From an uncultured virus (IMG/VR IMGVR_UViG_3300007514_000623) (taxonomy: Duplodnaviria > Heunggongvirae > Uroviricota > Caudoviricetes), in IMG/VR virus record IMGVR_UViG_3300007514_000623: a stretch of DNA of 20,000 bases. One strand, given 5' to 3'. Position numbers and translations under genes: made by a program. The notes under the pieces were generated by a model that saw nothing but the letters and a program-made list of their open reading frames with translations, did no database searches and had not been told where the DNA came from. Shown here piece by piece: positions 4,561-16,412 of this stretch; within the stretch, counting starts at the first letter, position 1; each line of letters opens with the position of its first letter.

Positions 4561-4593
4561 TTCCTTACATTGACTATTTTTTCATGGTAGGCT
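4561..4593 (+). promoter_or_regulatory. Sigma70-type promoter upstream of g3
   Basis: TTCC-TTACAT (4565-4570), 17-nt spacer ending TGG, TAGGCT (4588-4593); same architecture as four other intergenic sites. Confidence 0.55.
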
Positions 4594-8478: not shown

Positions 8479-8916
8479 ATGATTGCTATGTTAAAAGTTA
8501 AAATGGTGAACAAGAGTGATAATGCATTACCTAAGTATGCAAAAGATGGTGATGCTGGTATGGATATATGCTCTCTGGAAGATGTTGAATTAGGGGCATT
8601 TCAATGGCAACCAATACCTACTGGAATATATATGGAACTTCCAGAAGGTTATGAATGTCAAATCAGGTCAAGGTCTGGTTTAGCGGCTAAAGAGGGTATT
8701 CAAGTTTTAAATAGCCCAGGCACTATTGATTCTGGTTATCGTGGCGAGGTTAAAGTTATTTTAAAAAATAATGCATACGCTCCATATAAAATTAAAAAAG
8801 GTGATAGGATTGCACAAATGGTTTTTGCACCAGTAACAAATGTTGCTCCTGTTGAAGTTGAAGAACTTTCCGCATCTGATAGAGGTGAGGGTGGATTGGG
8901 GAGTACAGGAACATGA
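8479..8916 (+). CDS. dut: Trimeric dUTP diphosphatase
   Basis: All five motifs: AGMD, RSRSGLA, GTIDSGYRGE, GDRIAQ and RGEGGLGSTG. Start could be 8488. Confidence 0.97.
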   Translation: MIAMLKVKMVNKSDNALPKYAKDGDAGMDICSLEDVELGAFQWQPIPTGIYMELPEGYECQIRSRSGLAAKEGIQVLNSPGTIDSGYRGEVKVILKNNAYAPYKIKKGDRIAQMVFAPVTNVAPVEVEELSASDRGEGGLGSTGT

Positions 8917-9437
8917 CAGATAAAAGAAAACACTATGTAGATAATGAGAAGTTTTTTGATGAAATGAAGAAATGGAAACAGCGGGTTTTAGATGCAAGGG
9001 AAGTTGACGAACCTGATCCGCCTTCTACTGAATTTATGGGTGAATGTTTTTTAAAGATTTGTGAACATTTAATCATGCGCCCTAATTTTATTAATTACAC
9101 ATTCCGAGATGATTTGATTTCTGATGGCATTGAGAATTGTTTGTTATACGCTCACAATTTCAATCCAGAAAAATCGAAGAATCCTTTTTCATATTTTACA
9201 CAAATTATACATCATGCATACGTTAGGAGAATTGTTAAAGAAAGAAAGTTAATGCATATTAAATATCTTTTTGTTGAAAGGTCTGGAATACTAGATGAAT
9301 TAAATCCAGAGAATGAGGACAATAAAAGGGTTACTAAGGTCTGGTTGGACTATCTAAAGACTCACGAAAAGTATGCTGTTAATCCAGATAAAAAGAAAAA
9401 GAAACCAAAACCTGATTTAGAATTGTACTTTAAATAG
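8913..9437 (+). CDS. g55: Late-transcription sigma factor gp55
   Basis: HYVDNEKF, GECFLKI, RPNFINYTFRDDLISDGIENCL, NFNPEKSKNPFSYFTQI and RRIVKE. Confidence 0.96.
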   Translation: MTDKRKHYVDNEKFFDEMKKWKQRVLDAREVDEPDPPSTEFMGECFLKICEHLIMRPNFINYTFRDDLISDGIENCLLYAHNFNPEKSKNPFSYFTQIIHHAYVRRIVKERKLMHIKYLFVERSGILDELNPENEDNKRVTKVWLDYLKTHEKYAVNPDKKKKKPKPDLELYFK

Positions 9438-12632: not shown

Positions 12633-12857
12633 ATGCCGTTTTATAGTTATCGTTGTAATCAATGTGGTTTTACTGATGAAGCATTTGTTGATGTAAATAA
12701 AAGAGATAAGAAATGGCCTTGTGAACAAGAAGGTTGTACTGGTGTTATGGAAAGGGAAATTGATGCCCCATCATTTAAGTTGAAGGGTGATGGGTGGTAT
12801 AAAGATGGTTATAGTAAGAAACCTAAACCGAAACCAAAAGAGGAAAAGAAAGAATGA
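12633..12857 (+). CDS. FmdB-family zinc-ribbon protein
   Basis: MPxYxYRCxxCG…CxxxxC…F.LKG.GWY.DGY pattern of the FmdB/CxxC_CxxC_SSSS family. Confidence 0.88.
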   Translation: MPFYSYRCNQCGFTDEAFVDVNKRDKKWPCEQEGCTGVMEREIDAPSFKLKGDGWYKDGYSKKPKPKPKEEKKE

Positions 12858-13774
12858 AACTCTTATATCCATTTGCAAAACGATTTATTGCTGGGCATGA
12901 TTTTGATTCTGCTAAACCAGTAATTGATGATCTATTGCTTGATGGATTTGAAATTTCAATAGACTACTTAGGTGAATTAAGTAAGACTAAAGACGATTGT
13001 GAAAAAGCATATAGACAATATACAAATATCATTTCTCATTATTCTAGAATTGGAAAAAAAATTGATCTATCTATTAAACCATCACAACTAGGTTTAAAAC
13101 TAGATATAGGGTATTGTCGAAAGATGATACAGAGTCTTGCTTTTCTAGCAGATCATAATGGTATGACAGTTAGATTGGATATGGAAGATTCTTCTTTAAC
13201 ACAAGATACTATTGACTTGTGTTTTGAATTAAGAGATCATTCTAATAATGTTGGAATAGCATTACAAAGTAATTTATTTAGAACTGCAAAAGATATTCAG
13301 AATTTATTAGATGCTAAGATTTCTTTAAGAATTGTTAAAGGTGCATATAAGGAAACTAATAAAGAAGCATATCAAAATAAAAAACAAATCAGGCAACTGT
13401 TTATAAAAAATATATTTCAGATTATTACAAATAGGTGTCGATCATATTATCACTTTAAAGATATTACAACTCCTGTATCTGCTGTAGGTACACATGATGA
13501 ATATGTATTAATGGAAGTTGTAAAGAACATGAAGAAGTTTAATGTTTCAAAAGATGATATGGATTTTGAATTGCTGTACGGCATCCGTAGAGATTTAAGT
13601 AGGGAATTAATGAAGAAGGGGTATAAGGTTCGGTTATATGTTCCATTCGGAACTGAATGGTTGCCATACACTTTACGAAGATTAAGAGAGTATGATAATA
13701 TGAAAATGGTATTAGTTAACGTAATTAAGGAGCTATGGAATGGAAGAAAGACCGACAGATTTGAAATTGCATGA
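12854..13774 (+). CDS. Monofunctional proline dehydrogenase (PRODH, PutB-type)
   Basis: AKRFIAG, DYLGE, SIKPSQLG, RLDMED, GIALQSNLFRT, LRIVKGAY, GTHD, FELLYGIR and RLYVPFGxxWxPYxxRRLxE; 306 aa, the typical size for the family. Confidence 0.93.
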   Translation: MKLLYPFAKRFIAGHDFDSAKPVIDDLLLDGFEISIDYLGELSKTKDDCEKAYRQYTNIISHYSRIGKKIDLSIKPSQLGLKLDIGYCRKMIQSLAFLADHNGMTVRLDMEDSSLTQDTIDLCFELRDHSNNVGIALQSNLFRTAKDIQNLLDAKISLRIVKGAYKETNKEAYQNKKQIRQLFIKNIFQIITNRCRSYYHFKDITTPVSAVGTHDEYVLMEVVKNMKKFNVSKDDMDFELLYGIRRDLSRELMKKGYKVRLYVPFGTEWLPYTLRRLREYDNMKMVLVNVIKELWNGRKTDRFEIA

Positions 13775-14629: not shown

Positions 14630-14679
14630 TTTATAAAAGATTAATCAAAAACTAATATTATCCTAACACAAATCTAATT
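14630..14679 (+). promoter_or_regulatory. Pho-box-like array (OmpR/PhoB-family direct repeats with 11-bp period)
   Basis: Hexamers TTAATC (14641), CTAATA (14652), CTAACA (14663) and CTAATT (14674), plus weaker TTTATA (14630), spaced exactly 11 bp; upstream of a phosphate-permease-like operon. Confidence 0.65.
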
Positions 14680-14732
14680 CTTTTTTTATAAGTATTAATG
14701 AATAATTAATAAATAATAAAAAAGGAGATAAG

Positions 14733-14930
14733 ATGAGATTGACATTTTTAATATTGATAATGAGTATTACAATCGGCTGTGCTAGTGAACGAAGTACAAG
14801 AACTGCACAGCAAATATTAACACCAGATAAATTGAATATGCAGATTCATGTGAACCCCGATATTAGAAATGATATGAGGGATGATACTACAATACAGCAA
14901 GTTCGTTTAGGATTAGATTGGAATTTATAA
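14733..14930 (+). CDS. Small putative lipoprotein with beta-signal-like C-terminus
   Basis: Signal-peptide-II-like MRLTFLILIMSITIG|C; ends QQVRLGLDWNL; AAGGAG RBS; stop lies 1 nt before the permease start. Confidence 0.65.
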   Translation: MRLTFLILIMSITIGCASERSTRTAQQILTPDKLNMQIHVNPDIRNDMRDDTTIQQVRLGLDWNL

Positions 14931-14931
14931 T

Positions 14932-15900
14932 ATGGATTTAACATTATGGGCTTTACTTGGTTTTATTTTTGCGGTTTATGCAGTAACAGCAAATGATAGT
15001 ATTCAAACTTTAGGAACATATATTTCATCCAATGCCGATATTAAATGGTATTGGATGTTTGGTTATATGGGTACTATTTTTGTTGGTACAATGTTATATG
15101 GATTTGGAATTTATGATCCAGCATTCGGTAGATTAGAGAAGTTCCCCACAGTAGAAGTTCAATGGTATCATGCCGTAGCACCTATGATACTAGTTGCACT
15201 TACTCGCCTAAAGATTCCTGTATCAACTACCTTTTTAGTTTTATCAGTATTTGCTTCATCCGTAGTAATGGAGAAAATGTTAATTAAAAGTTTTCTCGGT
15301 TATGCTGTATCTTTTGTTTTTGCGTTTGGTTCATGGTATCTTATAAGTAAGTATATCTTGAATGAAGGACAAAAGGGGCAGGATAAACATAACCTCTATT
15401 GGAGATATGGCCAATGGATTACTACTGGATGGTTATGGGCAACATGGTTACAACATGATATGGCGAACATCATGGTATTCCTTCCAAGATATCATCCAGC
15501 TGGAAATGGTAGTTACGAATTACTTGTTATCGGAGTAATGTTAGTTGGACTTGCTTTTATGTTTTGGGAACGTGGTGGAAGGATTCAAGAAATTGTATTA
15601 TCTAAAACCAATACAAGATATGTTCGATCTGCAACATTGATTGATCTGGTTTATTGTTTCGTATTATATTTCTTTAAAGAATTAAACAATATTCCAATGT
15701 CAACAACATTTGTTTTTATGGGAATGTTAGCAGGAAGGGAAATGGGTATTTGGATGGACATGGGATATGGAAATCTAACATACACAAAACGACATAAGAA
15801 AGCAATATTTCCAATGCTGTACACAGACTTTTTAAGACTAATGCTGGGACTAGCTGTTAGTGTAACTATGGCATACGGAGTTTTTTATCTAAATAATTAA
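14932..15900 (+). CDS. PiT/PHO4-related inorganic phosphate (or sulfate) permease
   Basis: Multi-pass membrane protein with two internal repeats: TANDSIQTLG…IPVSTTF and QHDMAN…IPMSTTF, equivalent to the PiT GANDxAN/NDxAN and PxSTT signatures. Confidence 0.75.
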   Translation: MDLTLWALLGFIFAVYAVTANDSIQTLGTYISSNADIKWYWMFGYMGTIFVGTMLYGFGIYDPAFGRLEKFPTVEVQWYHAVAPMILVALTRLKIPVSTTFLVLSVFASSVVMEKMLIKSFLGYAVSFVFAFGSWYLISKYILNEGQKGQDKHNLYWRYGQWITTGWLWATWLQHDMANIMVFLPRYHPAGNGSYELLVIGVMLVGLAFMFWERGGRIQEIVLSKTNTRYVRSATLIDLVYCFVLYFFKELNNIPMSTTFVFMGMLAGREMGIWMDMGYGNLTYTKRHKKAIFPMLYTDFLRLMLGLAVSVTMAYGVFYLNN

Positions 15901-15981: not shown

Positions 15982-16404
15982 ATGACTTTTATGACTAAAA
16001 GAAAACCTTATACATTTGATTCACTAAGTCCGTTTCCAAATTGGTTAGAATTTGATAGGTGGGATGATTGGTTCAATTCTGGACTTGAACAATATGAACG
16101 CCCGTTAAATAAATATCGTTGGGATGAAACGGAAGAAGAATATCGAATTGATATGGTTATGCCAGGCATGACTAAAAAGGATATTGATATATCTTTTAAG
16201 AATGAAATGCTTACTGTTAAATGCAAGAGAGAGGTTTCTGAAAAGGATCAAAAATTCTTTGGTATAAAAACCGAACAATCCTTTAAGAACTTTCCGAGTG
16301 GAATAGACTCAAGTAAAATTTCTGCGGAAATGGGTGATGGTATTTTAACTATTAAACTCCCAAAAAGAGAAGCAGATAAACCGAAGTACATTGACATTAA
16401 ATAG
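15982..16404 (+). CDS. hsp20: Small heat-shock protein (Hsp20/alpha-crystallin family)
   Basis: ETEEEYRIDMVMPGMTKKDIDI and IDSSKISAEMGDGILTIKLPK (AxxxxGxLxxxxPK); AAGGAG RBS. Confidence 0.93.
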   Translation: MTFMTKRKPYTFDSLSPFPNWLEFDRWDDWFNSGLEQYERPLNKYRWDETEEEYRIDMVMPGMTKKDIDISFKNEMLTVKCKREVSEKDQKFFGIKTEQSFKNFPSGIDSSKISAEMGDGILTIKLPKREADKPKYIDIK

Positions 16405-16412
16405 GAGTTGCT

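Follow-up and report, generated by a model that had tools for sequence, protein, structure and literature searches.

What is switched on, and by which signal, when a phage places a transporter gene behind a regular series of 11-bp repeats? The question is raised by positions 14,630 to 15,900 of a 20,000-nucleotide stretch of an uncultured virus (IMG/VR IMGVR_UViG_3300007514_000623), here called the window, which is the last 20 kb of a linear 73,242-bp virus record estimated to be 37% complete. An initial annotation, made from the letters alone, proposed that host PhoB switches on a phage phosphate-uptake unit at this locus. We find that the cassette, a small lipoprotein gene and a permease gene, is together with its array well supported as a Pho-type phosphate-uptake unit. 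The proposed link to PhoB gains from conservation in related phages and from a match to promoters of SAR406 bacteria, but the promoter core beside the array is of the predicted phage late type, not the sigma-70 type. With modest confidence, we favor the reading that the array is a PhoB binding array that switches on a predicted late promoter of the lipoprotein and phosphate permease genes. The features on which this reading is built are the following:

14630..14679, + strand: five direct-repeat units with an 11-bp period (14630, 14641, 14652, 14663, 14674), predicted PhoB sites (shuffles, conservation, SAR406 promoter match)
14687..14694, + strand: TATAAGTA, predicted T4-type late (gp55) promoter core (late-word count; offset kept in relatives)
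14709..14715, + strand: second late-like word ATAAATA, possible second start site (sequence; also in L005, L092, L096 and L102)
14723..14727, + strand: Shine-Dalgarno sequence AGGAG (sequence)
14733..14930, + strand: predicted lipoprotein of 65 residues, with hydrophobic leader and Cys16 (75 homologues, virus-type sequences only)
14932..15900, + strand: divergent PiT/SLC20-fold permease of 322 residues, predicted Na+/phosphate symporter (profile, predicted structure, motifs)
8913..9437, + strand: phage late sigma factor, gp55-like (phrog_234, E 2.3e-53)

Repeat array and promoter core

The initial annotation had described four YTAAY hexamers at an 11-bp period and a weaker fifth, and all five are found where it placed them: TTTATA at 14630 (the weaker unit), TTAATC at 14641, CTAATA at 14652, CTAACA at 14663 and CTAATT at 14674. 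A run of four YTAAY words at period 11 has a single occurrence on the two strands of the 73,242-bp contig, and the repeats go beyond chance, as dinucleotide shuffling of the 112-bp intergenic stretch produced such a run in 1 of 20,000 trials (3 of 20,000 when any period from 6 to 15 was allowed) and shuffling of the contig in none of 200. Searches with the lipoprotein returned 4, 13 and 8 loci, which came to 15 non-redundant lipoprotein loci after duplicates had been merged and L231, which has no upstream DNA, had been dropped. The five-unit array is present in 10 of these 15, with the weak fifth unit in register in all ten (as TTTAYA, TTCATA or GTAACA), so that the repeats are indeed conserved at homologous loci. 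These arrays lie behind five different upstream genes, and the array therefore travels with the cassette. The array is likely to be a PhoB-type control element.

A full permease gene comes next in eight of the ten array loci; in the other two the contig stops too early, within the permease gene in L095 and within the lipoprotein gene in L089. Five lipoprotein loci have no array. The permease is present in two of them, and in the other three a different open reading frame (ORF) takes its place, so that none of the three loci with a substitute for the permease has the array. Both the lipoprotein and the array are missing from another two of the close permease loci. The tight two-gene unit that had been annotated stands in the window, where the lipoprotein and permease ORFs (14733-14930 and 14932-15900) are 1 bp apart, but it does not extend to every relative: the lipoprotein-permease-array unit is common, not obligate, with three lipoprotein loci lacking the permease, two permease loci lacking the lipoprotein, and two loci having both genes and no array. 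L094, L101, L226 and L227 lack the array, and what comes after their lipoprotein gene is a different small membrane ORF, one that contains two cysteines. At L091, L103 and L104, the lipoprotein and the five-unit array are conserved and the permease comes from another clade; promoter plus lipoprotein and permease have therefore recombined.

Period-11 unit pairs also occur in 16 of 59 non-redundant distant phage permease loci (shuffles: mean 2.3, maximum 7), whereas at other periods at most 5 of the same 59 loci have unit pairs. In 9 of these 16, TAAATA stands at offset 15, 25 or 26, with a binomial probability of 8e-7 that assumes independence, which these loci do not have. The distant loci show several other things as well. 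In 35 of the 59, the ribosome-binding site is directly preceded by a conserved hairpin leader whose stem changes apparently compensate one another, within the last 60 bases before the permease start (loci L134-L210, e.g. L152, L175 and L193); it is absent from the window, and the 7 loci scanned gave zero Rfam matches for it. In L142, L145, L189, L202 and L206, the gene before the permease ends, as judged by eye from alternating residues and an aromatic end, like an outer-membrane beta-barrel protein, and these phages may carry a porin in place of the lipoprotein. L145 also holds a two-piece transfer-messenger RNA gene (L145:1687-2065), and in Pelagibacter phage Mosig (L211:2044-3879), pstS and a PlcP-like hydrolase gene point away from each other, and the stretch that separates them contains Pho-type repeats.

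Overlooked by the initial annotation was the predicted late-promoter core, TATAAGTA. The window codes for a gp23 capsid protein, the gp55-like late sigma factor, SbcC/D-like nucleases and an Hsp20, and therefore comes from a T4-like phage; the gp55-like protein is the predicted reader of the core promoter before the lipoprotein gene. This core differs at one position from the late-promoter word of the phage, TATAAATA, of which the contig has 16 copies on the + (coding) strand and 2 on the - strand; 9 copies lie no more than 70 bp from an ORF start. In two respects, the core thus resembles a T4 late promoter, with a TATAAATA-type core reused before other genes and a gp55-like gene present; in a third it does not, as T4 late promoters have no conserved upstream element and five conserved units stand upstream here. 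None of the other 16 TATAAATA sites of the contig has an array. The TAAGTA of TATAAGTA begins 10 bp after the TAAY of the last array unit, and across the ten phage arrays this slot reads TAAATA (seven), TAAGTA (two) or TACATA (one), with an exact TATAAATA at the slot offset in six loci, TA preceding the slot in nine, and the first T and A of the slot kept in all ten.

At a PhoB promoter, a sigma-70 -10 element would be expected 10 bp past the last repeat, and the phage arrays do not have it: TAnnnT fills the slot in 0 of 10, versus 10 of 12 host or P-SSM2 rows (nine from SAR406, two from a foreign-looking pst operon and one from P-SSM2; 6 of 8 when counted as distinct promoters, with the last unit picked by eye). 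These figures bear on a different account, in which host PhoB activates the sigma-70 polymerase at a poor -10 element and the late word is a second, PhoB-independent route that shares the spot. Such an arrangement requires no new protein contact, it fits the exact host spacing between array and -10 slot as well as the invariant first T and A of that slot, and cyanophage genes are known to be under PhoB control (PMC10976474). We nevertheless consider it unlikely, because the final T of TAnnnT is missing from the slot in all ten arrays and six of the ten loci lack TAnnnT anywhere from -2 to +34, whereas the slot of P-SSM2 keeps TATAAT and the four sigma-70-type promoters of the window all keep TAnnnT. 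The latter are the TTCC-TTGACA/TTACAT promoters at 4565, 9456, 16740 and 19334, in all of which a 17-bp spacer leads to a TAnnnT -10 element; as the initial annotation had observed, no promoter of this kind lies within the intergenic region upstream of the lipoprotein gene.

Permease and lipoprotein

The permease had been annotated as PiT/PHO4-related, an assignment that its predicted fold supports. Against Pfam PF01384 (PHO4) it scores 24.8 bits (E 1.3e-5), below the curated cut-off of 33.7, and PDB sequence searches with two permease alignments gave zero matches. A structural model built from 68 rows, which replaced an earlier one (17 rows; predicted local distance difference test, pLDDT, 73; TmPiT E 1.8e-3), reached a pLDDT of 91 and shows the PiT fold with its two inverted repeats. 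Its only clear match is TmPiT (6L85; Foldseek E 7.9e-5), to which it aligns over 287 residues with Z 20.3 and a root-mean-square deviation of 3.9, the next of 48,161 chains having Z 6.0. In TmPiT, the phosphate ligands are D22, D258 and the S-T-T tips of two hairpins, and the sodium ligands include N21, T29 and D327 (PMC7413737). When mapped to these residues by motif and not by residue-level superposition, the permease keeps all eight phosphate-binding positions, here given with their counts in the 68 rows: D22 (63), S98/T99/T100 (66/61/48), D176 (55) and S257/T258/T259 (60/67/68). Its sodium-site equivalents, N21, T29 and probably D238, are well kept in the family. Fold, inverted repeats, N21/D22/T29, both P-x-S-T-T hairpin tips and the second aspartate (D176) are thus shared with TmPiT, from which the permease differs in length (322 versus 401 residues) and with which it has 14-15% identity. 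Two features speak against a PiT-type phosphate transporter: the full G-x-N-D signature fails, with V-T-A-N-D and L-Q-H-D both missing the glycine, and the position of TmPiT N257 is a His. Weighing the model and its motifs, we think it very probable that the permease transports phosphate, and by its predicted structure it is a divergent PiT branch overlooked by profile cut-offs.

This branch has many members: the family takes in 7,367 of 7,999 scored candidates, in 997 clusters at 50% identity, and members occur in 597 of 600 scanned IMG/VR stretches, with an estimated total of about 1,000 stretches. Among 50,697 deposited phage records, we found no permease homologue. Inside the start of the permease gene is a hairpin of 12 pairs with a T-rich run after it (window 15026-15057), possibly a chance occurrence.

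The 65-residue protein encoded ahead of the permease shows, by eye, the pattern of a lipoprotein, with a basic N-terminus, a hydrophobic stretch and a lipobox cysteine, C16, that is present in at least 90% of 35 rows. Its homologues are 100% viral where a taxon is recorded, and none was found in the 38 genomes of the SAR406 host family discussed below. Matches to the T7 o-spanin (E 0.18) and TssJ (E 0.047) were too poor to trust, and an Atlas lead to Phage_OMP (score 0.77, 14% of members) fell under the Atlas trust level. A search of 7,999 candidates for longer relatives of the lipoprotein yielded none, which is weak evidence, and a four-copy complex prediction, which bears on the idea of a small multi-chain beta-barrel, scored 0.01 and is non-informative either way.

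Probable host link to SAR406

Who would read the array depends on the host. The closest cellular relatives of the permease, at 74-80%, are from Marinimicrobia (SAR406). In a tree of 51 rows (four cellular loci and one viral locus were dropped, as their full ORF was not extracted), a clade of 21 rows with 100/100 support unites the window, 9 phage and 11 SAR406 sequences; the SAR406 sequences form one subclade, and the base of the clade remains open. The permease is concentrated in a single SAR406 family, that of genome G001, where it occurs in 33 of 38 genomes (30 at 73-81%); a survey of 201 genomes of the phylum found it in 15, of which 14 belong to this family. Of the same 38 genomes, one has PstS, and none has a PHO4 protein above cut-off or a Na/Pi cotransporter. 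The sole pst operon among them (L112, G035:C2) has CTGTAAY-type boxes unlike those of the family, and its neighbors are phage-like genes; a foreign origin or an error in binning may account for it.

In five genomes of this family (G001, G002, G009, G012 and G027), the permease belongs to an island with the order tRNA-Asn, phoB, phoR, TonB receptor, lipoprotein, phoU, permease. In its spacers before the receptor, lipoprotein and phoU genes, the island has period-11 units of the forms CAAACA and CTAACA, among them the phage-shared ATCCTAACA. Such units also precede a PlcP-like hydrolase gene (presumably a PlcP relative, the name being our own label for a protein whose profile assignment is the LpxH family), and four units precede the pstS of another phylum member. 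A matrix built from 17 host units ranks the phage array first for two and four units and second for three, among about 146,000 positions. From a two-unit scan, 13 regions were picked: 6 are intergenic and lie before PlcP-like, unknown exported protein and pstS genes, 1 lies before another gene, 1 by an RNA gene end, and 5 inside ORFs. In L039, L040 and L045, all from SAR406, the phoBR island is missing, and tRNA-Asn and permease are separated instead by a spacer of about 350 bp that contains a tandem duplication.

A SAR406 host is, on this evidence, rather likely, a call that rests on the permease and the boxes. Several observations pull the other way. Of the 38 family genomes, which are incomplete, 7 yielded a PhoB-like gene, always of the same type, and yet 7 of 11 close phage permease loci carry the array; the true host may therefore be an unsampled relative. 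PhoU of the island exceeds its family cut-off, but PhoB and PhoR are best or near-best matches that remain below theirs. The host training sites for the matrix were located non-blind, with patterns written after the phage array had been seen, and the two-unit pattern was not enriched over a reversed control in 121 phylum genomes, while the three-unit pattern occurred in 2 of 38 genomes and 2 in the control. Other genes of the phage give no clear host signal: proline dehydrogenase is 28-39% identical to family homologues with one 52% match, PurC is about 32% identical without family preference, and tRNA-Pro is 79% identical versus 74-76% elsewhere. Finally, similar units precede g247 of P-SSM2, and the box type is thus not exclusive to SAR406.

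The scarcity of PhoB in most genomes of the host family also lends something to the idea that the array is read by another regulator of the OmpR/PhoB type or by one encoded by the phage, or that the substrate is another oxyanion, such as sulfate or arsenate. Repeats of 11 bp are common to OmpR-family proteins, the PHO4 score is below its cut-off, and a phage regulator could sit outside a contig that is about 37% complete. We judge this improbable, considering that array-type units precede phoU, pstS and a PlcP-like gene, that the eight phosphate-binding positions are kept by motif, and that a Trans_reg_C domain is absent from G000 and two related fragments, all of them incomplete.

Proposed mechanism and meaning

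In the reading we favor, phosphate shortage would lead host PhoR to phosphorylate PhoB, whose dimers would load head-to-tail on the array and cover the -35-equivalent position of the late promoter. Array-bound PhoB would raise transcription by gp55-RNA polymerase, boosting uptake late, during phage DNA synthesis and packaging. The permease, with the lipoprotein co-expressed, would add a single-protein, ion-driven importer of the type used by the likely host, a small-genome SAR406 bacterium; PiT rather than pstS would be carried because PstS on its own would find no PstCAB to work with in such a host. That PhoB activates the late polymerase is a tentative proposal drawn from sequence. Its most specific form, in which PhoB at the empty -35-equivalent of a gp55 promoter directly activates the late polymerase, replacing or aiding gp45, in phages of SAR406, is rather doubtful.

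The arguments against activation of a late promoter come from both mechanism and data. PhoB activation goes through region 4 of sigma-70, and gp55 is without region 4. In the T4 system, the late promoter is an 8-bp TATA box at -10, gp33 takes over the position of sigma region 4, and activated late complexes have the gp45 clamp at their upstream end (PMC2988020), where it could therefore clash with PhoB. On a promoter that holds just this box, an array in activator position is therefore unexpected. The core of the window has its single mismatch, and the close permease loci L002, L003, L004 and L097 have no array. Moreover, the script that defined the slot was anchored on the late-like word plus two units, leaving the remaining three units as the only free test, and the array loci are related to one another. 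The same position of gp45, with gp33 on the flap (PMC2988020), the five phage units versus two to four in host promoters and a SAR11 PiT-like gene that excludes the Pst/Pho module (preprint 10.64898/2026.08.15.744057) could be taken to mean that bound PhoB represses by blocking gp45, or that the array soaks up PhoB, with the permease made in plentiful phosphate, but this is very improbable, as the array has the activator spacing of host phosphate promoters, the host permease copy shares an operon with phoU behind such boxes, and a roadblock or decoy needs no fixed phase in unrelated phages.

The phage itself offers little on expression. Of two RNA runs, one (8% of words matched) gave two short assembled contigs over 14766-14914 and 16223-16405, which carry neither start site, strand nor level, and the second gave no contig placed on the window. 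An Rfam scan of the window had zero matches. Elsewhere in the window, positions 12854-13774 code for a monofunctional proline dehydrogenase (Pro_dh E 1.2e-28), which adjoins the cassette in several relatives too. A host-type gene cluster (G000:C1:356-4434) encodes SAICAR synthetase, two 2-oxoglutarate oxygenases, pterin dehydratase, a NifU-like protein, a cyclic-nucleotide-binding protein and 5-formyltetrahydrofolate cyclo-ligase.

How does the proposed PhoB activation of a late promoter compare with known systems? Zeng and Chisholm reportedly placed cyanophage pstS and phoA under host PhoBR in 2012. Host PhoBR controls cyanophage pstS/phoA and S-PM2d genes (PMC10976474), and Pho boxes and late promoters were both sought near cyanophage pstS with no single solution (PMC3037559). 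As in those phages, a phosphate gene lies here behind 11-bp host Pho boxes, and as in P-SSM2, a small predicted envelope protein comes first (the DUF680 protein g247 before pstS there, the lipoprotein here). Unlike in cyanophages, the cargo is a single-protein PiT-fold permease and the likely host is SAR406, and where P-SSM2 has TATAAT in the -10 slot, this phage has a predicted late-promoter core. With the T4 late system (PMC2988020), it shares an 8-bp TATA box at the -10 position and a gp55-like sigma factor in the window; T4 late promoters are without an upstream element, whereas here a conserved five-unit array stands at a fixed distance. Among cellular genes, SAR11 OG0001433 is described as a candidate PiT-type alternative that excludes Pst/Pho (preprint 10.64898/2026.08.15.744057). 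Like the phage permease, it is missed by profile annotation, matches TmPiT in structure and is found where Pst is absent, which also holds for most of the SAR406 family here, but it is cellular and excludes the Pho module; the two proteins presumably belong to one family.

The initial annotation knew of no such arrangement in T4-like phages. In the full-text literature (most subscription papers lie outside it), we likewise found nothing on Pho boxes at gp55 promoters, on a phage permease of this family under PhoB or on SAR406 T4-like phages. Phage-borne pho4 itself is not new: virus-encoded PHO4-superfamily transporters, including one phage-derived metagenomic clone, have been published (PMC3429862), although these pho4 genes are mostly from viruses of eukaryotic algae, and the available text of that paper gave no link to a promoter or to PhoB.

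In the reading favored here, host-PhoB control of phage genes would extend beyond cyanophages to the phages of a heterotroph that is abundant and uncultured, and to a different transporter. The size of the permease family suggests that marine phages commonly carry, as a phosphate gene, a PiT subfamily that has so far been overlooked, and the boxes yield a candidate Pho box for SAR406 as well as a lead to the host of a phage clade that is unassigned. There is also a biochemical question, namely whether a host activator that needs region 4 of sigma-70 can work on a phage sigma factor without it. If PhoB does activate the late polymerase, late transcription would be tied to host phosphate status in many marine T4-like phages; and if the host assignment is right as well, the clade would consist of T4-like phages of SAR406 that carry the only recognisable phosphate importer of that family.
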